DNA of 64,000 nucleotides from Acidimicrobiales bacterium (GTDB lineage: Bacteria > Actinomycetota > Acidimicrobiia > Acidimicrobiales > CADCTF01): assembly GCA_035540495.1 (NCBI GenBank), contig DATLGL010000047.1, forward strand, positions 30,383-94,382, given 5' to 3'. Positions 10,754-35,635 of the stretch are shown one piece after another. The position numbers and the translations under genes were made by a program. Numbering within the stretch: position 1 is the stretch's first letter; the number at the start of each line of letters is the position of its first letter. The notes under the pieces were generated by a model, which searched no databases, was not told the origin of the DNA, and worked only from the letters and a program-made list of their open reading frames with translations.

Positions 10754-12274
10754 ATGGCCGAGATCACGATGCCCCAGCTGGGCGAGACCGTCACCGAAGG
10801 CACCATCACCAAGTGGCTGAAGAGCGTCGGTGACCGCGTCGAGGAAGACGAGGTCATCTACGAGGTGTCGACCGACAAGGTCGACTCGGAGGTGCCCTCG
10901 CCGGTCGCGGGGTACCTGGCCGAGATCAAGGTTCCCGAAGGCGAGACGGCCGAGGTCGGTGCCGTGCTCGCGGTACTGAGCGACTCGCCGCCCGACGGCG
11001 CCGCGGGCAGCGGCGGCGACGCTGAGCCTGCCTCCGCCGGCGAAGCCGCTGCTCCTGCCGACGGCTCCGGCGGCGGCGATCCCGAACCAACGGAAGGAAC
11101 CGACGTCCCCGCGGGAGGCGGCAACGCCCCCGACCCGACGGGCGCCGCTCAGGCCGAGTCCGTCCAGCCGGAGACGCCGACGGAGCAGCCTGCGCCCACG
11201 CCTTCGGCCGACGCCACGCAGGCACCAGCCGGCGCGCCTCCCGCGTCAGCCGACGGCGACTCCATGCTGTTGTCGCCCGTCGTGCGCCGGTTGATCGCCG
11301 AGCACAACATCGACCCGTCGCAGATCAAGGGGACGGGCACCGGCGGGCGCATCACCCGCAACGACGTGCTCGCCGTCGTCGAAGGCGGCGGAGCCGCGGC
11401 AGCCGCGCAACAGAGCGCCACACCACCGCAGCAGCAGACACCGGCACCCGCCGGTCAGGCAGCGCTCGCGCCCGGTGCGTCCGCGCCGGCCGCGTCTGCG
11501 TCGGGCGCGTCCGCCGCGGCGACCGCGCGCCAGGCACCGTCGGTCGCAGCCACCGCGGGCGATCGCGACGAGGTGGTCCCCTTCTCCAACATCCGCAAGC
11601 GGACCGCCGAGCACATGGTGCGCTCGCTCGCGACGTCCGCGCACACGCTCGTCGTGATCGAGGTCGACTACCAGAACGTCGCCAAGGTGCGGAACGCCGA
11701 GAAGGACACCTTCAAAGCCGCCGAAGGGATCAGCCTCAACTACCTCCCGTTCATCGCGCGGGCGGTTGTGGACGCGATCCGCGAGTTCCCCCACGTCAAC
11801 GCCTCGGTCGGCGACGGCGAGCTGATCGTCCACCACTACGTGAACCTCGGCGTGGCGGTCGACCTGAACTTCCAGGGCCTCATCGTCCCGGTCGTGCAGG
11901 ACGCTGACGGCAAGCGGCTGCGGGCGATCGCTCGCGAGATCGCCGACCTCGCGAACCGGGCGAGGGCGAAGAAGCTCGGCGCCGACGACATCGCGGGCGG
12001 GACCTTCACCCTCACGAACGCCGGGCCCTTCGGCACGCTGATCACCGCGCCCGTGATCAACCAGCCTCAGGTCGCGATCCTCGCGACGGACGGCGTGAAG
12101 CCGCGGCCCGTCGCGATACCGCTGCCGGACGGTAGCTACGGCATCGCGGTGCACCCGGTCGGCAACCTCGCGCTCTCGTTCGACCACCGCGCCTACGACG
12201 GCGCGTACGCGTCAGCGTTCCTCGCCAAGGTCAAGGAGATCCTCGAGACGCGCGACTGGTCGTCGGAGCTCTGA
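10754..12274 (+). CDS. sucB: 2-oxoacid dehydrogenase E2 dihydrolipoamide acyl(succinyl)transferase
   Basis: N-terminal lipoyl domain ('EVSTDKVDSEVPSP'), long Ala/Pro linkers, E3-binding domain ('SPVVRRLIAEHNIDPSQIKGTGTGGRITRNDV'), catalytic 'SFDHRAYDG'. Confidence 0.9.
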   Translation: MAEITMPQLGETVTEGTITKWLKSVGDRVEEDEVIYEVSTDKVDSEVPSPVAGYLAEIKVPEGETAEVGAVLAVLSDSPPDGAAGSGGDAEPASAGEAAAPADGSGGGDPEPTEGTDVPAGGGNAPDPTGAAQAESVQPETPTEQPAPTPSADATQAPAGAPPASADGDSMLLSPVVRRLIAEHNIDPSQIKGTGTGGRITRNDVLAVVEGGGAAAAAQQSATPPQQQTPAPAGQAALAPGASAPAASASGASAAATARQAPSVAATAGDRDEVVPFSNIRKRTAEHMVRSLATSAHTLVVIEVDYQNVAKVRNAEKDTFKAAEGISLNYLPFIARAVVDAIREFPHVNASVGDGELIVHHYVNLGVAVDLNFQGLIVPVVQDADGKRLRAIAREIADLANRARAKKLGADDIAGGTFTLTNAGPFGTLITAPVINQPQVAILATDGVKPRPVAIPLPDGSYGIAVHPVGNLALSFDHRAYDGAYASAFLAKVKEILETRDWSSEL

Positions 12275-29107: not shown

Positions 29108-29956
29108 GTGATGCCCCGCCGCAGCAGATTCGCCGCACTCTTCGTCGCGCTCAGCGCTCTGCTCGCACCTGCCGTCGCCATCCCAGCGCCTGCATCGGCG
29201 GCCGGCCCCGGCTACTGGCTCCTCAAGGCCGACGGTGGCATCCACGCCTACGGCGGCGCCACCCACGCCGGTGACACCGGCGGCAACGTGCCCGATCCGA
29301 CGCCGGCGATGGCTGCCATGCGATCGGGCGGCGGCTACTGGATCGGCGCCCGAAACGGCGTGGTCTACGCGTTCGGGGACGCCCGCTTCTACGGCAGCGC
29401 AGCGGGACGCCGGCTGAACCAACCGATCGTCGGCATGGCGTCGACGCCCGGCGACGACGGGTACTGGCTCGTCGCGAGCGACGGCGGCGTCTTCAACTTC
29501 GGAGCGGCCGGCTACCACGGCTCGACCGGAGACATCCGCCTCAACTCGCCGATCCTCGCGATGGCGTCCACGGTCTCCGGCGGCGGCTACTGGATGGTGG
29601 CCGGCGACGGCGGCATCTTCACGTTCGGCGACGCGCCGTTCTTCGGGTCGACCGGTGCGATGCGCCTGAACCGGCCCGTGGTCCGGATGGAGCCGACGCC
29701 GTCCGGTCGCGGCTACTGGCTCGTGGCCAGCGACGGCGGCATCTTCGCCTTCGGCGACGCCGGCTTCCACGGCTCGACGGGAGCGATGCGGCTCAACTCG
29801 CCGATCGTCGGCATGGCCTCGAACGCCGACGGCAGCGGTTACTGGCTGGTCGCGGCCGACGGCGGCGTCTTCACCTTCGGCACTGCCGACTTCCACGGCT
29901 CGGCCGGCGGTGGAGGGCTGACGGCCCCCGTCGTCGACGTCGTCGCGTCCCGCTGA
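29108..29956 (+). CDS. Secreted six-repeat ('GYW' repeat) beta-propeller-like protein
   Basis: Sec signal ending ..APASA/AGPG. Six tandem 41-42-aa units 'GYWLVASDGGVFxFGDAxFxGSxGxxxLNxPIVGMAxT'. First gene of a translationally coupled operon. Confidence 0.75.
   Translation: MMPRRSRFAALFVALSALLAPAVAIPAPASAAGPGYWLLKADGGIHAYGGATHAGDTGGNVPDPTPAMAAMRSGGGYWIGARNGVVYAFGDARFYGSAAGRRLNQPIVGMASTPGDDGYWLVASDGGVFNFGAAGYHGSTGDIRLNSPILAMASTVSGGGYWMVAGDGGIFTFGDAPFFGSTGAMRLNRPVVRMEPTPSGRGYWLVASDGGIFAFGDAGFHGSTGAMRLNSPIVGMASNADGSGYWLVAADGGVFTFGTADFHGSAGGGGLTAPVVDVVASR
29210..29953 (+). repeat. Intragenic tandem repeat, six units of about 126 nt
   Basis: Tyr of the GYW motif falls at residues 36, 77, 119, 161, 203 and 245. 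The DNA-level repeat is visible (ggctactggctcgt...gacggcggc.tcttc..cttcgg). Confidence 0.8.
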
Positions 29957-30480
29957 TGGACGAACTCGCGTCGGCAGCAGCCCTCGTCCTCGCCATCGTG
30001 TTCGTGTGGGCGGGCGTGGCCAAGCTCGCCCGTCCGAGCGACACCGCGGAGTCGTTCGCGGCGCTGGGGTTGCCCGCGGCGAAAGCACTTGCCCGGGTCG
30101 TCCCCGTGGTCGAGCTGGCGCTCGCCGCGGGCCTCGTGTTCCGCCCCGCGGTCGCATCCTGGGCCGCGCTCGTGGTGCTCGGCGCGTTCACCTTCGTGAT
30201 CTGGGTGGCCATCCACCGAGGCGTGCAGGCGCCGTGCAACTGCTTCGGGTCGGCCCGGAAGGAGCCGGTGTCGACGCTCGAGCTCGTGCGCAACGCGATG
30301 CTCGCCGGGCTCGCGGTCATCGCCACCGCGGCCCACGGCGCCGCTGGATGGCCCGGGGTGCCTTCGGTCATCGCGATCACGGTGATCGTCGCGTTCGGCC
30401 GGCTCTCCCTCGCGCTGGCCGAGTTCCGGCGGACGGGCGGGCGGATCTTCCCGACGATGCCCGGCGGATCTCCGCGATGA
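29956..30480 (+). CDS. MauE/DoxX-family redox-associated membrane protein
   Basis: Four hydrophobic helices and the family-typical 'APCNCFG' motif. Its start overlaps the upstream stop (TGATG). Confidence 0.75.
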   Translation: MDELASAAALVLAIVFVWAGVAKLARPSDTAESFAALGLPAAKALARVVPVVELALAAGLVFRPAVASWAALVVLGAFTFVIWVAIHRGVQAPCNCFGSARKEPVSTLELVRNAMLAGLAVIATAAHGAAGWPGVPSVIAITVIVAFGRLSLALAEFRRTGGRIFPTMPGGSPR

Positions 30481-30950
30481 GCGGGTCGGTCTGGGTCGTC
30501 AGCTACGTGCTCCTGTGGCTCGCCGTCGTGGGACTCACGGTGGTCGTCATCGCGTTGCTTCGCCAGGTCGGCGTTCTCCACGCTCGCCTGCAGCCGCTCG
30601 GCGTCCATCCCGCAGGGGAGGGGCCGCACGAGGGAGAACCGGCGCCGCCGCTTCCCGCCGTCGACTACTCCGACGCAGCGGCGACCCTCGTCACCTTCAC
30701 CTCGCCGACGTGCACGGTGTGCGAGCAGTTGGCTCCCTCGTTGCGCGCACTCGAGGCGCAGTACGGCGACGTGAGGCTCGTAGAGATCGCGATGAACGCC
30801 GACACGAGCGCGGTGTTCTCGGCCTTCGCCGTCCGTTCGACGCCGTACCTCGTGGCCGTCGACCGCGAGGGGATCGTGCGCGGCAAGGGAGTCGCGAACT
30901 CGTTGGAACAAGCGGAGGTCCTGGTGGAGGAAGCGCTCGCCGATGCCTGA
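30477..30950 (+). CDS. Membrane-anchored thioredoxin-fold protein, MauD/TlpA-like (CxxC = CTVC)
   Basis: ATG 30477 (ATGA overlap). N-terminal TM anchor 'VWVVSYVLLWLAVVGLTVVVIALL', then 'VTFTSPTCTVCEQL' and 'STPYLVAVD' thioredoxin-fold elements. The track embeds it in a longer off-frame-start ORF. Confidence 0.75.
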   Translation: MSGSVWVVSYVLLWLAVVGLTVVVIALLRQVGVLHARLQPLGVHPAGEGPHEGEPAPPLPAVDYSDAAATLVTFTSPTCTVCEQLAPSLRALEAQYGDVRLVEIAMNADTSAVFSAFAVRSTPYLVAVDREGIVRGKGVANSLEQAEVLVEEALADA

Positions 30951-32367
30951 GCTCGACGGGATCGCTGAGGGAGCGGCGCGCTGGCTCGCTCGCCGGCACA
31001 CACGGCGGTCGTTCCTCGGGCGTCTCGGCAGGGGAGCCGTGTTCGTGGCCGGCGGATCGACGCTGGCGACGCTTCTGCTCGAGCAGGAGGCCGAGGCTCG
31101 GGTGTGCGGGCAGTCCGGCGTGAGCACCAAGTGCGACACCTACGACTGCGGCGACGTGTGGGGCTGGTGCTGGTACGCCTCAGGGTGTTGCGCGGGCGGC
31201 GAGCTCAAGAAGATCTGCGACTGCTGCCGCGCCGACCACCCGAACGTGCACGGGTACTGCCCGAGCGGCACGAACGTGCTGTGCATCGTCGAGAGCTGCG
31301 GCGCCGATCCGCGGGTGCAGGTCGTCTCGCTTCGCCGGGTCACCACCGACGAGGTGATCGCCGCGTCCGCGCTGGCGTCCCGCGCTCGCGCAGGCGAGGG
31401 CCAGGGCCCCGTGGTCTGGATGGTGAACGCAGCCGACCCGTTGTTGGCTGCCGTCGTCGCCCCGGTCGCGGTGCGGGCGAACGCCATCCTTCTCCTGACC
31501 GATGGATCCGGGCTCGCCGCGCAGACGATCGCGGAGCTCCAGCGGCTCGGCACGGCGCGCGCGGTCCTCGCCGGCACCGGCATCGGCCCGGGGGTCGAGC
31601 AAGCCCTCGCGCGTTATGGGATCGTCGCCGAGCGCCATGAACCGTCGGCCGACGCGATCGTGATGTCGCGCCGCACGACCGAGGAACTGCTTGCCGCCGG
31701 AGCTCGACGGGTGGTCTGCATCGAACCCGCCGGCTTCTCGCTCGCCGCCGCGCCACTGGCCGGAGCGCTCGCGGCGGCGAAGGGGTACCCCGTCGTGATC
31801 GGCGTCGACGCCGCACGTGAGCTGTCGGTCCGAGCAGCGGGAGCGCGACCTGTGCTCACGTACATGGTGGGGCCTGAAGCGGCATCGCGGGCCGGCGAGG
31901 TGCAAGGCGGCCACCCGTTCCACTCAGCCGACTGGGCCTCGTTGTCGTCGGAGATGTTCACCGCGGCGTTCCAGACCGAGAACGTCGGGGGTGGGCGGCT
32001 CGCCCTCGTACCCGCAGGTTCCCCTGCGCTGCACGGAGCGCTGAGCTTCGGCGGGCCGATCCTGGTGCACGGCTCAGGCGTGTTGGAAGGCGTCCGCGAC
32101 GCGCTGTTCCAGTCGCGCGATCGCTTCCGGTCGGCAGCGCTGATCGGCGGCGCGAACGCTCTGTCGACACAGGCGTACTACGAGTTGCAGTCGATCGTGA
32201 ACGGCTTCGAGGCCCACAAGCTCATCGGCGTCGCGGGCCAGGGACTTCCGGTGATCGACCAGCCGCTGGCCGAACGCCCGGTCGGTCTCGCCCGCCGGTC
32301 GAGCGCGAGTCAGGTGCAGGCGGAGTCGCGGTACTGGACCGACCGGGTCCGCTCCCTCGGCTCCTGA
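30943..32367 (+). CDS. Tat-exported protein: 12-Cys/Trp-rich module (MauA-light-chain-like features) fused to three cell-wall-binding-repeat-2-like domains
   Basis: Twin-arginine motif 'TRRSFLG' plus h-region and AEA site. 12 Cys within residues 55-119 ('VWGWCWYASGCC', 'ICDCC', 'YCPSGT'). Then three roughly 100-aa units of the pattern 'AD.L.A...A....A.ILLT......T...L......AVL.G....I'. Confidence 0.7.
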   Translation: MPELDGIAEGAARWLARRHTRRSFLGRLGRGAVFVAGGSTLATLLLEQEAEARVCGQSGVSTKCDTYDCGDVWGWCWYASGCCAGGELKKICDCCRADHPNVHGYCPSGTNVLCIVESCGADPRVQVVSLRRVTTDEVIAASALASRARAGEGQGPVVWMVNAADPLLAAVVAPVAVRANAILLLTDGSGLAAQTIAELQRLGTARAVLAGTGIGPGVEQALARYGIVAERHEPSADAIVMSRRTTEELLAAGARRVVCIEPAGFSLAAAPLAGALAAAKGYPVVIGVDAARELSVRAAGARPVLTYMVGPEAASRAGEVQGGHPFHSADWASLSSEMFTAAFQTENVGGGRLALVPAGSPALHGALSFGGPILVHGSGVLEGVRDALFQSRDRFRSAALIGGANALSTQAYYELQSIVNGFEAHKLIGVAGQGLPVIDQPLAERPVGLARRSSASQVQAESRYWTDRVRSLGS

Positions 32368-32368
32368 C

Positions 32369-32440
32369 GTGACGTTCCTCGTCGCGGTCGCGCTCGTCGC
32401 CGCGTTGTTGGCCGCGGTGCGCTCGCTCTGGTCGCCCTGA
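32369..32440 (+). CDS. 23-codon hydrophobic ORF (VTFLVAVALVAALLAAVRSLWSP-TGA). Either an independent micro-protein or the N-terminal TM helix of the next gene if the TGA is recoded
   Basis: GTG lies 1 nt after the upstream stop. All 23 third codon positions are G/C. In frame with ORF 32462-33628. Confidence 0.3.
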   Translation: MTFLVAVALVAALLAAVRSLWSP

Positions 32441-32461
32441 GGCCTGTCCGTCGCCGAGACG

Positions 32462-33628
32462 GTGGTGCCCTCGGTCCGGGGGCCGAAGCGCATCCTGGTC
32501 GCGTCCCTGCTGACGATCTCGTCCGCCGGCTCCGGCGCGCTCACCGGGTTCGTCCTGGGCGTCATCGGCGAGGCCTTCGGCGTTGCTGACGTGCCGCGGT
32601 GGGCAGTCGTCGTCGCGGCAGCGCTCGTCGTCGTGGTCGATGCGTTCGTCCCGCCGCTGTCGGTCCGACGGCAGGTGCCGCAGCTGTGGGGTCGGGTCTT
32701 CGACGTGCGCACGACGGCCGTTCTCTACGGGCTGCGGCTGGGCGTCGGCCCGCTGACCATCCTCCGGACGTGGTGGTGGTGGTTCGCCGTCGTCACCGCC
32801 GCGCTGGCGGGCGTGTGGTGGTCGGTGGCGGTGGGTGCGTCGTTCGGCGTGGCCCGGATCCTCGTGATGCTCGGCGCCGGCACACGAGCCGGCTGCATGC
32901 GGCGGAGCGAGCGACTGGCGATCGCTTCTGGTGCTGGCGTCCTCGCGGTGATCGTGGTCGCTGCGCTCGCTCTTCCGGAGGAGCTCGCAGGCGATGACCG
33001 CAGCTCTGCGTCGAGATCGCGCGCGCCGGCGCCCTCTGCCGCTCCGACGAACGACGGGAGCGCAGCGCCGTCGACGTCGAGTGTCCCCGCGCCGAGGGCG
33101 ATCCCCGCCGACCCCGGCCTGGTATTGGCGCTCCCCGCCGACATCGGCGAGCGGTATGAGCTCATCCCCGACGATCCTGGTCGAGCGTTGGGAGCGCTCG
33201 ACCTCGCCACCGCGGCCGCCATCGAGCAGGACGAACCCGCTGAGCGCTCACTCCTCGAGACCCGCCGGTTCCAGATCGGCCACGCGCGTGCCTGGCGACA
33301 CCGCGACGGCCGGGTCGCCTATGTCGCCGCGTACCGCTTCGGCTCCGCTGACGACGCCGCTGCCTACCTCGTCGACGGGTTCATAACGCTCGAGAGCCGC
33401 GGAGCGCGCGTCTACGGGCTCGCCTCGCCGGCAGGCGCTAGAGGATTCAGCCAGGCCGCCAGCGCGGGGGAGACGAGCGAGGTCGCCCACGGTGTCGGCT
33501 TCACCAGAGGGGACGTGCTCGTCCTGGTCGTGGAGACCTCGCGTGGTTCCGCAGCCACTCCGTCGGGCGCTCAGCGGATCGCCCAACTGGTCGAGATGTC
33601 TGTGGCCGAACCTCGATCGGCGTGGTGA
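32462..33628 (+). CDS. Polytopic membrane protein with Ser/Pro-rich linker and extracytoplasmic C-terminal domain, unknown function
   Basis: At least four hydrophobic helices (residues 10-170, including the 'WWWWF' helix), a low-complexity linker, then a roughly 170-aa globular region. Last gene of the coupled operon. Confidence 0.6.
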   Translation: MVPSVRGPKRILVASLLTISSAGSGALTGFVLGVIGEAFGVADVPRWAVVVAAALVVVVDAFVPPLSVRRQVPQLWGRVFDVRTTAVLYGLRLGVGPLTILRTWWWWFAVVTAALAGVWWSVAVGASFGVARILVMLGAGTRAGCMRRSERLAIASGAGVLAVIVVAALALPEELAGDDRSSASRSRAPAPSAAPTNDGSAAPSTSSVPAPRAIPADPGLVLALPADIGERYELIPDDPGRALGALDLATAAAIEQDEPAERSLLETRRFQIGHARAWRHRDGRVAYVAAYRFGSADDAAAYLVDGFITLESRGARVYGLASPAGARGFSQAASAGETSEVAHGVGFTRGDVLVLVVETSRGSAATPSGAQRIAQLVEMSVAEPRSAW

Positions 33629-33750: not shown

Positions 33751-34377
33751 TCAGCCGGCTGCGGACACGGCTGCCGCGAGCGCGCGTTGGTGACGGTCGA
33801 CGGCCCAACGGACGCCGTCGTGGCAGACAGCCGGGTGGTAGTCGAGGCGCATCAGCTGGCGCTCCGTCTCCTCGATGCCGAGGCCCGCCTCGAGGTACGA
33901 GAGCGCGAGTTGGCGGGCTCGCTGGCGCTGCTGCTCGACCGCGGGGATCTGCAGCTGGTGCTCCTGCCACGACCGGTGGGCCCGCTGGAGGAGCTCCGGG
34001 AGCCTCGATTGCTGCGCTCTGGTCAGCGGCGGCACCCGTAGCCGCACAGCGAGAGTCGATGCATCCTCGAGCTGCGCGAACTGGAAGCGCACCAGTCGCT
34101 GGATGGTGCGGGCGAACGGCGAGTGACGGCCCAGGCGCTCGCCGAGGCCGAGGCGCTGTGCCGTCGACGTGAGGTCGAGGTCGTAGCCCTCAGGGGTCGC
34201 TTCGAGCGACGTGACGAGGTGGCGCAGGAGCCAGGTGGTCGACGGACCGAGGATCCCGAGCCAGAAGGTCTCCACGTACGAGCTGCAGGGGTGCTGCCCG
34301 ACGGCGTCGATGACCGGGTCGGGCCAGGGGCGGACGGACAGTGAGTTCTCGAGGTCGAGCGGAAAGGGGATCGGCAC
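33751..34377 (-). CDS. Conserved hypothetical protein (possible winged-helix fold)
   Basis: GTG start, high GC3, 208 aa. No motif I can name. Lies downstream of pilT on the same strand. Confidence 0.55.
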   Translation of the reverse strand: MPIPFPLDLENSLSVRPWPDPVIDAVGQHPCSSYVETFWLGILGPSTTWLLRHLVTSLEATPEGYDLDLTSTAQRLGLGERLGRHSPFARTIQRLVRFQFAQLEDASTLAVRLRVPPLTRAQQSRLPELLQRAHRSWQEHQLQIPAVEQQRQRARQLALSYLEAGLGIEETERQLMRLDYHPAVCHDGVRWAVDRHQRALAAAVSAAG

Positions 34378-34483: not shown

Positions 34484-35635
34484 TTACCAGGCGGCGACCT
34501 CCGGGCGGGACGGTTCTTCGACGCCGTTGTTGTGCAACAGAAGCTGCAGGTCGTGCGGGTTCGACGCGTGGGCCAGCGCCGTCGGCACGTCGATCACGCG
34601 CTCTGCGCACAGGCGGGCCAGCGACTGGTCGAAGGTGGTCATGCCGTAGTACTCCCCGCGGGCGATGATCTCGCTGATGTCCCCGTGGCGGTCGGGATCG
34701 AGCACGCACTGCTGGACGCGGCCGTTGGCGATCAAGATCTCCACGGCCGGAACCCGCCCCGGCGTGTAGCTCGTCGGCACCAGCCGCTGCCCGATGACGC
34801 CCTTGAGCGTGCTGGCGAGGCTCATCCGCACCTGGTGGTGCTGGTGCGGAGGGAAGAAGTCGACGATGCGGGTCACGGTCTCCACCGCGTCGCTCGTGTG
34901 GAGGGTCGACAGCACGAGGTGCCCGGTCTCGGCCGCGTGGATCGCGGCGGACACGGTCTCCAGGTCGCGCATCTCGCCGACGAGGATGACGTCGGGATCC
35001 TGGCGCATCGCTGCGCGCATCGCCGAAGGGAAGTCCTTGGTGTCGACGCCGATCTCACGCTGGGAGATCTCGGCCCGGTCAGGGCGATGGACGACCTCGA
35101 TCGGATCCTCGATCGTGACCACGTGGCAATCGCGGGTGCGATTGATGTGGGCGATCATCGCAGCGAGCGTCGTGGTCTTGCCGGAACCTGTCGGACCGGT
35201 CACCAGCACGAGACCACGCTGCTCTTGGGCGAGACGCTCGACCGTCGGCGGCAGGTTCAGCTGGACGAACGACGGGACCTTCGACGTGACGTGACGGAAG
35301 GTCATGGCCAGCCCACCCGCCTGCCGATAGACGTGGACGCGGAACCGCCCGACCTCGTCGTCCTGATAGGAGACGTCGACCTCCTCGCCCTGCTCGAGCT
35401 TGTCGACAGCCTCAGGCCGCAGGATCCCGCGCGCGAAGTCGGAGAGCTCCTGCGCACCCAGAGGGGACTCGCCGGCGACCTTCTCGAGGCGCCCGTCGAC
35501 CCGGACCCGAGGCGACGATCCGCTCTGCAGATGGAGGTCGGACCCGCGCGCGCTCACGACGAGCGCGAGCAATCGAGCGAGCCGAGGGTTCTGCGTGGTC
35601 GTCTGTCCGATCGGACGGTCGAGAATCGCGGTCAT
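34484..35635 (-). CDS. pilT: PilT-family type IV pilus retraction ATPase
   Basis: Walker A 'GPTGSGKTTT', 'IEDPIE', Walker B 'DPDVILVGEMRD', 'TGHLVLSTLHT' His box. PilT-like length. Confidence 0.88.
   Translation of the reverse strand: MTAILDRPIGQTTTQNPRLARLLALVVSARGSDLHLQSGSSPRVRVDGRLEKVAGESPLGAQELSDFARGILRPEAVDKLEQGEEVDVSYQDDEVGRFRVHVYRQAGGLAMTFRHVTSKVPSFVQLNLPPTVERLAQEQRGLVLVTGPTGSGKTTTLAAMIAHINRTRDCHVVTIEDPIEVVHRPDRAEISQREIGVDTKDFPSAMRAAMRQDPDVILVGEMRDLETVSAAIHAAETGHLVLSTLHTSDAVETVTRIVDFFPPHQHHQVRMSLASTLKGVIGQRLVPTSYTPGRVPAVEILIANGRVQQCVLDPDRHGDISEIIARGEYYGMTTFDQSLARLCAERVIDVPTALAHASNPHDLQLLLHNNGVEEPSRPEVAAW

Follow-up and report, generated by a model that had tools for sequence, protein, structure and literature searches.

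A conserved in-frame TGA, very probably a selenocysteine codon, in a family of membrane protein genes of Acidimicrobiia

The locus and its reading frame

The window, a stretch of 64,000 nucleotides from an Acidimicrobiales bacterium, contains a cassette of four genes. These encode a MauE-family protein, a MauD-like CxxC thioredoxin, a Cys-rich TAT protein and, in last position, a membrane protein proposed here to be a selenoprotein. The features of the cassette are the following:

29956..30480, + strand: MauE-family membrane protein, first gene of the cassette (PF07291, E = 1.5e-25)
30477..30950, + strand: MauD-like membrane-anchored thioredoxin-fold protein, 157 aa, with a CxxC motif, CTVC here (PF00085; TIGR02661 below cut-off)
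30943..32367, + strand: TAT-signal protein, 474 aa, with about 16 Cys in about 70 residues (translation)
32369..33628, + strand: proposed full selenoprotein ORF, 419 residues, U being residue 24, stop at 33626-33628
32369..32437, + strand: start GTG and N-terminal transmembrane helix, ending R-S-L-W-S-P (start-codon conservation, AlphaFold model)
32438..32440, + strand: in-frame TGA, proposed selenocysteine codon, residue 24 (TGA in 70/70 genome loci and 35 metagenome loci)
32441..32461, + strand: codons for G-L-S-V-A-E-T, 5' of the annotated start (protein-level conservation)
32441..32985, + strand: rest of the polytopic membrane domain (motifs Q-V-P..W, L-Y-G-x-R-L-G-x-G-P-x-T and W-x-W-W invariant)
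32448..32462, + strand: first small hairpin, CCGUC-GCCGA-GACGG, role uncertain (79% of cells paired)
32467..32483, + strand: candidate SECIS hairpin, GCCCUC-GGUCC-GGGGGC, overlapping the P-S-V-R-G codons (covariation, folding energy)
33113..33625, + strand: C-terminal alpha/beta domain, after a low-confidence Pro/Ser/Ala-rich linker (AlphaFold, Foldseek)

The stop codon of the Cys-rich gene occupies positions 32365-32367, and GTG 32369 begins one base after it. This GTG opens 23 codons, VTFLVAVALVAALLAAVRSLWSP, and direct reading finds G or C at the third position of 23/23 codons of 32369..32437. Beyond the TGA the same frame reads GLSVAETVVPSVRG..., and translation shows it to be unbroken apart from the TGA, from GTG 32369 through GTG 32462 and GTG 32465 to the stop at 33626-33628. 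A preliminary description of this DNA had placed the mini-ORF at 32369, the TGA at 32438-40, the continuation of the frame at 32462 and a hairpin at 32467-32483, and each of them is found there; the continuously high GC3 that it reported over the junction is also borne out, with values of 0.90-1.00 throughout. The annotation at this place, from NCBI and from other gene callers, is a 387/388-aa protein. Most likely, as judged from sequence comparison, one ORF (32369..33628) replaces the annotated pair formed by the 23-codon ORF and the 387/388-aa gene.

Taken in one sequence, a lone in-frame stop looks like a pseudogene or a sequencing or assembly error. The TGA and its flanks (600 nt), whose read support had been in doubt, are identical to the window in three independent assemblies (one from ENA, two from Logan), and an assembly error is therefore excluded. 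Furthermore, the same TGA occurs in more than 100 diverged loci, with intact ORFs on both sides. The explanation by pseudogene or error retains a negligible probability and is already refuted by these comparative data. A search of the window for other coding-looking in-frame TGAs, with a filter that was too strict for the target itself, returned none beyond an antisense artefact and a gene boundary at 12272.

Conservation of the TGA and of its flanks

The comparison set is composed of 69 related genome loci reaching the TGA position and of the window (n=70), to which 35 metagenome loci were added (105 in total). TGA is found at the position equivalent to 32438 in 70/70 genome loci and in 35/35 metagenome loci, and TAA or TAG in 0/105. 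The motif surrounding the stop is conserved as W-S-P-[TGA]-G-L-S-V-A-E-T. In the 70 loci, codon positions 1 and 2 are about 100% identical from codon -3 to codon +7 (87-100% in G-L-S-V-A-E-T), compared to 43-84% for position 3, and the substitutions show a three-base periodicity across the TGA. All four Gly codons are used across the loci immediately after the TGA, and the Ser of G-L-S-V-A-E-T is encoded by TCN or AGC. Selection of the coding type on both sides of the TGA is supported by these alignments. On the 5' side, 42/70 loci have a start codon at a distance of exactly 23 codons from the TGA (ATG in 31, GTG in 10, TTG in 1), and the sequence 5' of that position is not conserved in the 70 loci.

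The current annotation implies that a 23-residue micro-protein ends at the TGA and that GTG 32462 or 32465 is the start of a distinct membrane protein. Gene callers, including that of NCBI, do give the 387/388-aa protein, and an ATG or GTG is present directly before PSVRG in many orthologues; Pro-UGA, a poor termination context, has also been counted on this side. Yet the seven codons following the TGA, which would be untranslated in such a case, are under selection at the amino-acid level, and in 19/70 loci no ATG, GTG or TTG exists between the TGA and PSVRG. A genuine stop would also be expected to vary between TGA, TAA and TAG, yet TGA is kept in 105/105 loci, and both parts are fused in the Cys homologues (see below). 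In the alignment, the orthologues do not simply begin at the equivalent of 32462, the outcome that the preliminary description had contrasted with its own proposal: the upstream helix, the TGA and the peptide from the TGA to 32462 are all conserved. The annotated arrangement is thereby rendered very improbable.

Homologues with a cysteine codon

The Cys codon envisaged in place of the TGA does occur among homologues, as TGC or TGT, in six cases (P0314, P0342, P0311, P0234, L098, and L106). These Cys homologues are single uninterrupted ORFs spanning both parts, and the only one whose flanking DNA is long enough for the comparison (L082) belongs to the same operon. Every sense-codon form (6/6) has Cys at the TGA position; a Sec/Cys-pair criterion of this kind has been applied in PMC1976440. 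Cys forms are unusually rare, about 1 in 20. They also keep the G-L-S-V-A-E-T peptide, and in 5/6 of them the downstream hairpin and the PSVRG peptide are both absent. The Cys forms hence constitute a natural control, in which loss of the hairpin goes with loss of the peptide encoded by it, showing that the putative SECIS element constrains the protein sequence.

Hairpins downstream of the TGA

The candidate SECIS hairpin begins 26 nt after the TGA, and 94% of its cells are paired in the 70 loci. Covariation is observed at pairs 45-61 and 49-57, with 0/500 shuffles reaching the observed values; the first of these pairs joins a synonymous third position with a variable first position. The mean folding energy is -12.3 kcal/mol, versus -5.5 for control windows of the same genes. 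The hairpin is found in 105/105 TGA forms, with energies ranging from -6.8 to -16.9 kcal/mol, the 35 metagenome loci serving as replication. An invariant G-U is found in its loop, whose start is 32-34 nt downstream of the UGA. RNAalifold alone recovers 3 pairs of the hairpin 32467-32483, and no Rfam match was obtained for it. The SECIS-like hairpin proposed at the outset can hence be described as a conserved and covarying candidate element with an invariant G-U in its loop.

The same proposal carried the caution that GC-rich hairpins arise easily by chance, which is justified for the single sequence: the hairpin of the window alone folds at -11.7 kcal/mol (z = -1.2 versus dinucleotide shuffles), 26/200 shuffles fold as well, and the whole 53-nt stretch in the window has a z of -0.03. 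The putative element exceeds chance only through comparison with relatives, the single sequence being statistically unremarkable.

The first small hairpin (32448..32462) was rejected as covariation evidence: its register differs between lineages, and it persists in Cys forms. This persistence results from its being built from the SVAET codons, and it therefore does not discriminate between the hypotheses.

Selenocysteine machinery and decoding of the TGA

The Sec machinery expected alongside such a gene is found in two relatives. In L010, the gene adjoins a WAxxUGC selenoprotein, selA, selD and tRNA-Sec. The L048 genome has the gene on a contig of 3,609,885 bp that also carries selA and selB. 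SelA is common among Acidimicrobiales MAGs, and selABCD has been reported in all Actinomarinales, which belong to the same class (bioRxiv 10.64898/2026.04.03.716425). No tRNA, Rfam family or sel homologue was detected within the 64-kb window, a result that is uninformative for a piece of such size. Two further candidates were discarded. SelA HVM01051.1 was not retained as that of the window's own MAG, as it is about 8,500 accessions away from HVM09540.1 and hence probably comes from another MAG; the apparent SelB match in L085 is EF-Tu.

The UGA might also be read through without Sec, by near-cognate insertion of Trp or Cys or by another programmed read-through stimulated by the hairpin. The comparative data indeed demand translation through the UGA and leave the inserted residue unspecified, and the window shows no Sec machinery of its own genome. 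However, each of the six sense-codon forms carries Cys, in the classical pattern of a Sec/Cys pair; the Sec machinery occurs together with the gene in two relatives and is adjacent to it in one; and the hairpin resembles bacterial SECIS elements in its position and in the G-U of its loop. Read-through of this type is accordingly considered improbable.

The selenocysteine reading put forward in the preliminary description is supported by the conserved TGA, the coding flanks, the Cys homologues, the hairpin, and the machinery in two relatives. On the other side stand the hairpin's unremarkable folding in the single sequence, its greater distance from the UGA than in E. coli fdhF, the rarity of Cys forms, and a protein that has one conserved Sec/Cys residue and no resolving Cys. 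The TGA at 32438-32440 is, with high probability, decoded as selenocysteine, in which case the mini-ORF and the annotated 388-aa gene would form a single membrane selenoprotein of 419 residues. Translation would start at GTG 32369. The Cys-rich gene ends 1 nt ahead of this codon, and initiation here is probably coupled to the termination of that gene. The ribosome would then make 23 residues, consisting of a transmembrane helix followed by R-S-L-W-S-P. At the UGA, we infer that the hairpin 32467-32483, located 26 nt downstream, recruits SelB carrying Sec-tRNA(Sec), and elongation would proceed into the ORF annotated as a separate gene, yielding an integral membrane selenoprotein of 419 residues.

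Protein architecture and family

AlphaFold models were obtained for residues 25-419 of the window protein and for the Cys homologue P0314. The models of the membrane domain are helical throughout, with a pLDDT of 92.8 for P0314. In the latter, the N-terminal helix spans residues 3-23; this helix is conserved in orthologues, in agreement with the initial suggestion that an N-terminal transmembrane helix is joined to the membrane protein. In the Cys-homologue model, the Sec-equivalent residue caps the N-terminus of a short helix that directly follows TM1. The Sec/Cys position is the sole conserved redox residue, and family alignments reveal neither a second conserved Cys column nor a resolving Cys; the redox mechanism is therefore not obvious.

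The C-terminal domain is predicted with a pLDDT >90 in the window protein model. Foldseek matches it to the extracellular sensor domain of PknH (4ESQ, E = 1.5e-3) and to TiME (7CU9), and it is probably located outside the cytoplasm. About 20 short members of the family lack this domain or have it separately.

The family comprises at least 391 representative clusters at E <= 1e-10. It is widespread in Acidimicrobiia and systematically truncated in databases. Everywhere it is wrongly entered as a hypothetical protein that lacks its N-terminus and begins at an arbitrary start codon, and its most conserved motif and likely active-site residue are therefore absent from protein databases. Literature searches on selenoproteins with MauE or in Acidimicrobiia turned up nothing on this family, and none of the curated models searched describes it. 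Integral membrane selenoproteins are uncommon in bacteria, and the family would add one to the bacterial selenoproteome. The Acidimicrobiia, an abundant class in soil and water, would gain a conserved selenoprotein, which may help explain why they have retained the Sec machinery.

A conserved cassette and a possible redox role

The gene order observed in the window is largely conserved. The Cys-rich TAT gene is directly upstream of the putative selenoprotein gene in 68/69 loci, the MauD-like CxxC gene is present in 64/69, its CxxC being conserved wherever the motif is found, and the MauE-family gene is upstream in at least 49/69. The TAT-signal Cys-rich protein has no match in Pfam or NCBIfam. 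The operon devoted to disulfide chemistry that had been proposed as the context of the gene thus holds, with MauE, the CxxC thioredoxin-fold protein and the Cys-rich TAT protein conserved beside it. This provides a concrete operon in which to consider function, and would connect selenium with those MauE/MauD maturation systems, still poorly understood, that operate outside methylamine metabolism.

As a tentative proposal, suggested by this context, the selenol could be the redox-active residue in thiol-disulfide (selenenylsulfide) exchange during maturation of the Cys-rich protein. More speculative still is the idea that the family might represent a new selenium-based transmembrane redox component, unrelated to DsbD/CcdA, DsbB and VKOR, with a single interfacial Sec and no partner Cys; Sec, MauE and the MauD-like thioredoxin might then together act on the TAT-exported Cys-rich protein, by forming or isomerising its many disulfides or perhaps by providing it with a cofactor. 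If this were true, sulfur would not easily take the place of selenium in this chemistry, as the near-obligate use of Sec (about 20 Sec forms per Cys form) would then indicate.

Comparison with known systems

The locus shares with bacterial selenoprotein genes, such as E. coli fdhF or the ResA-like WAxxUGC family (NF041054), a conserved in-frame UGA replaced by Cys in homologues. As in these known genes, it co-occurs with selA, selB, selD and tRNA-Sec, here in relatives, and as in fdhF-type genes, a hairpin with a G-U in its loop is located within the coding sequence, tens of nucleotides downstream. The splitting of selenoprotein genes into two ORFs by gene callers has been described for mycobacterial fdhA/fdoG (PMC13449736). 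Unlike the curated selenoprotein families, to none of which it has a detectable relationship, this family is a polytopic membrane protein; it displays a lone Sec with no nearby Cys, in contrast with the UxxC, CxxU and UGC motifs, and its Sec form greatly outnumbers its Cys form. The loop of the E. coli fdhF hairpin is nearer to the UGA than the 32-34 nt seen here. Similarly, the predicted apical loop of the neighbouring WAxxUGC gene of L010 is about 18 nt after the UGA, versus 33 here.

With CcdA/DsbD (PF02683, PF13386; 5VKV), the protein shares a small polytopic domain of about six helices, a Ser-Pro-Cys/Sec beside a transmembrane helix, and a link to an extracytoplasmic thioredoxin-fold CxxC protein. 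Homology was rejected: hhalign against the DsbD alignment gives a probability of 0.3% and aligns only WSPC with CSPC. The Pfam DsbD search yields no match for the window protein (E = 0.47-1.5), with 2/40 members matching below threshold (DsbD_2, best E = 0.0085), and a profile search against PDB sequences for such a relationship returned nothing. Using the model of pLDDT 92.8, Foldseek ranks 5VKV (CcdA) second (E = 0.24, probability 0.47, TM-score 0.31), and CcdA is the match of highest probability; it is not significant. Whereas CcdA/DsbD has one redox Cys per half of the membrane domain, one conserved redox residue is present here, and no CcdA gene occurs in the examined loci. The CcdA/DsbD-type thiol transporter of the preliminary description is hence reduced to a resemblance of motif, with no second conserved Cys.

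The C-terminal domain is modelled with the same alpha/beta fold as the extracellular sensor of PknH and actinobacterial envelope proteins (4ESQ, 7CU9, 4TMD, 4PWS), and, as in PknH, a Pro-rich linker separates it from the last transmembrane helix. The resemblance to PknH is weak, with E = 1.5e-3, a target-normalised TM-score of about 0.5 and 10-13% identity. Unlike PknH, there is no kinase here, and the domain is dispensable in short family members.

Finally, the cassette differs from the mau cluster by having no MauA (PF02975) or MauB match, the Cys-rich protein and neighbours being without Pfam/NCBIfam match, and by a MauD match below the equivalog cut-off (TIGR02661, 76.6 versus 188.6 bits). 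No selenoprotein is known from the classical mau cluster. The MauA light chain of methylamine dehydrogenase is disulfide-rich. As in the mau maturation system, MauE-family and MauD-like CxxC proteins are encoded here beside a secreted and very Cys-rich protein.

The probable selenocysteine site

Residue 24 of the 419-residue family protein (32369-33628, + strand) is very probably selenocysteine (Sec), encoded by the TGA at 32438-32440, which is a real recoding site. The recoding mechanism is of a known kind. The family is a new selenoprotein family, at least relative to curated resources and the searchable literature; no prior description of it was found in those resources or in the literature searched. 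The ORF, TGA and hairpin reported in the preliminary description are all present:

30943-32367: TAT-signal Cys-rich gene (RRHTRRSFLGRLG), stop at 32365-32367; a Cys-rich part, then ~350 residues without a family match
32369: GTG opening a 23-codon stretch, VTFLVAVALVAALLAAVRSLWSP, which ends at the TGA
32438-32440: in-frame TGA
32462 and 32465: GTG codons through which the frame after the TGA runs to the stop at 33626-33628
32467-32483: hairpin GCCCUC-GGUCC-GGGGGC

GC3 is 0.90-1.00 across the TGA junction, in a window of 69% G+C from an Acidimicrobiales MAG. The NCBI annotation at the locus consists only of a 387-aa hypothetical protein (HVM09540.1, locus tag VM345_13820). A sequencing error is excluded, because the sequence, with its TGA, is the same in three independent assemblies. 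Elsewhere in the window, a TGA at 12272 separates two long same-frame ORFs (~509 and ~542 codons, both of high GC3); this is probably the normal end of one gene, with its successor in the same frame.

Conservation of the TGA

A protein search returned 75 homologues. All of them leave the first 23 residues uncovered, as expected when gene callers terminate at the TGA. At the DNA level, a scan in which each GTDB species was represented by one genome gave 75 loci, nearly all from Acidimicrobiia/Actinomycetota MAGs, of which 69 reach the TGA region (70 with the window). The orthologue alignment proposed in the preliminary description reveals the upstream helix and the TGA in the same frame in all 69 loci: a hydrophobic helix, (R/H)(S/T)(L/M)-W-S-P, the stop, G-(L/R)-S-(V/I)-(A/T)-E-T, two variable residues, and P-S-V-R-G. 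The stop codon is TGA in 70/70. Metagenomes, scanned independently, contributed another 35 TGA loci, of which 31 differ from every genome locus.

Codon-by-codon statistics bear the marks of protein-level selection on either side of the TGA. From codon -3 to +7 of the 70 loci, identity is 87-100% at positions 1 and 2 and 43-84% at position 3; around the TGA, Gly is encoded by any of its four codons, Leu by CTN or TTG, and Ser by TCN or AGC. Conservation ends abruptly upstream of codon -23, and exactly that codon is ATG in 31, GTG in 10 and TTG in one of the 70 loci. Between the TGA and PSVRG, 19/70 loci have no ATG, GTG or TTG at all. In the others the candidate "starts" are merely Val codons at differing positions, and public gene calls therefore begin arbitrarily (MAETV..., MSVAETV..., MPSVRG...). 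In P0212, P0219, P0227, P0284 and other database proteins, the start was called within GLSVAET, at a codon for Val or Leu that most calls translate as M; such artefactual N-termini (MAETV..., MSVAETV..., LSVTETV...) have spread through clustered protein databases.

Cys homologues

Among 1.84 billion cluster representatives, a profile search recovered 1,259 members of the family at E <= 1e-3, and 391 at E <= 1e-10; four of the best 150 have ~25 additional N-terminal residues. Cys codons in place of the TGA, for which the preliminary description proposed a check, occur at exactly that position in six homologues: two TGC forms from metagenomes and the four database proteins below.

P0314: N-terminal region ...GIRSLWSPCGLSVAETTYLTVSGARR, TGC
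P0342: N-terminal region ...GIRSLWSPCGLSVAETIVAPGRERR, TGC
P0311: N-terminal region ...AFSLWCPCGYSIAETVTHTVSGWRR, TGT
P0234: N-terminal region ...VHSFWSSCGISVAETLITPLAGRMR, TGC

These Cys forms prove that the annotated protein and the helix at the N-terminus are one polypeptide. L082, the sole Cys-form locus with sufficient flanking DNA, is likewise accompanied by MauE, a thioredoxin and a 470-aa gene. Sec/Cys pairing is the standard criterion for naming a new selenoprotein family (PMC1976440).

The candidate SECIS hairpin

The warning that GC-rich hairpins arise by chance holds for the single sequence, in which the hairpin is not statistically unusual (-11.7 kcal/mol, z = -1.2). When the 70 loci are aligned without gaps, 94% of the cells of the stem are paired. 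Pair 49-57 occurs as U-G (36), U-A (22), C-G (9) and G-C (2), and pair 45-61 as G-C (45), C-G (5), G-U (4), U-A (4), A-U (1) and U-G (1). In the latter, a synonymous third position pairs with base 1 of a variable codon, and the pattern is therefore not explicable by amino-acid conservation. The observed pairing values were not attained in any of 500 shuffles, and sliding the register lowers the score greatly. The hairpin folds in 70/70 loci (-6.8 to -16.9, mean -12.3 kcal/mol), against -5.5 +/- 3.1 kcal/mol for control 23-nt windows of the same genes, 2.9% of which reach -12.3; its mean in the 35 metagenome loci is -12.8 kcal/mol.

The loop (GUC, GUU, GUG, CGUGC or GGUC) begins 32-34 nt past the UGA and always contains G-U. 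In R-to-E variants the Gly codon becomes GGC and the GGUC tetraloop hairpin is kept. In position and loop G, the candidate hairpin fits Zhang and Gladyshev's model of bacterial SECIS elements, in which the loop reportedly lies 16-37 nt from the UGA and has a G among its first bases; its GGUC loop is also reminiscent of fdhF. No Rfam family matches it. The PSVRG peptide is absent from the Cys forms, of which 5/6 lack a stable hairpin at this position (-2.3 to -5.2 kcal/mol), the sixth having an unrelated one (-11.2 kcal/mol); PSVRG is thus probably conserved for the RNA element that its codons would form. A first small hairpin (32448-32462) was given no weight, as its register shifts between lineages and it persists in Cys forms.

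Sec machinery

No Sec machinery genes lie within the 64-kb window; direct evidence of them comes from relatives. After the family gene in the related locus L010 come a ResA-like WAxxUGC selenoprotein, which has a TGA of its own in WAPY*GC (NF041054, E = 1e-74), selA (TIGR00474, E = 2.4e-115), selD in a Cys form, GAGCGCK (TIGR00476), and tRNA-Sec (ARAGORN and Rfam RF01852, 65.9 bits). This compact selenium island (L010 4559-8160) adjoins the family gene; although the record is labelled Acidobacteria, its genes are similar to Acidimicrobiia genes. The contig of locus L048 is 3,609,885 bp long, and a contig of exactly this length carries SelA P0103 and, adjacent to it, a SelB (TIGR00475, 294.7 bits, above the cut-off). 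SelA is common among Acidimicrobiales MAGs, and all Actinomarinales, of the same class, are reported to have selABCD (2026 preprint, bioRxiv 10.64898/2026.04.03.716425).

Protein architecture

Pfam and NCBIfam contain no model that matches the protein, with or without its N-terminus. For the Cys homologue P0314, AlphaFold gives a confident model (pLDDT 92.8, pTM 0.89): TM1 is helix 3-23, the Cys caps the N-terminus of a short helix (25-35), and five more membrane helices follow, with the conserved R-L-G-x-G-P-x-T segment unwound. A positive-inside reading would put the Sec loop on the cytoplasmic side of the membrane and the C-terminal domain on the outer side. This domain is well modelled and shows a weak likeness (E = 1.5e-3) to the extracellular sensor domain of PknH and to that of TiME. 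It is missing in ~20 members, the short forms of 181-254 aa comprising the membrane domain only (L027, L028, L030-L032, L036, L042-L045, L047, L048, L050, L054, L056, L057, L060, L066, L067, L069, L074). At some of these loci tblastn places it downstream in a different frame, where it may be a separate ORF or reflect a frameshift. In the family alignment A1, the distant full-length homologues P0043, P0049, P0070, P0072 and P0073 display a lipobox-like L-A-(A/G)-C-S-(G/N/S) directly after the last membrane helix, which hints that the outer domain may be cleaved and lipidated in some lineages.

Cassette and function

The proposed disulfide-chemistry operon is borne out by its conserved upstream genes: MauE in at least 49 of 69 loci, a MauD-like thioredoxin in 64 (with CxxC in every locus where the motif was found), and, directly upstream of the family gene, the TAT-signal protein with ~16 Cys within 70 residues in 68. 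The latter is itself an uncharacterised family. The neighbours below were also observed; the downstream ones are not conserved among related loci.

29108-29956: 282-aa secreted-looking protein, ~six repeats GGYWLVASDGGVFxFGDAxFHGS, propeller-like in look, without a Pfam match; upstream of MauE in 13 related loci
33751-34377 (-): 208-aa protein without a family match
34484-35635 (-): PilT-family type IV pilus ATPase

MauE and MauD are associated with the disulfide-rich MauA and, by this analogy, the cassette probably matures the exported Cys-rich protein. In this maturation the selenol would take part as a redox-active group, although a redox-relay role for the selenoprotein is put forward only tentatively. 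The relationship to CcdA/DsbD suggested in the preliminary description fails as homology: hhalign gives a probability of 0.3%, DsbD_2 matches 2/40 members, and Foldseek compares the model with CcdA (5VKV) at E = 0.24. The family alignment contains no second conserved Cys, unlike DsbD/CcdA. A lone Sec with no resolving Cys would imply an intermolecular selenenylsulfide or a different chemistry.
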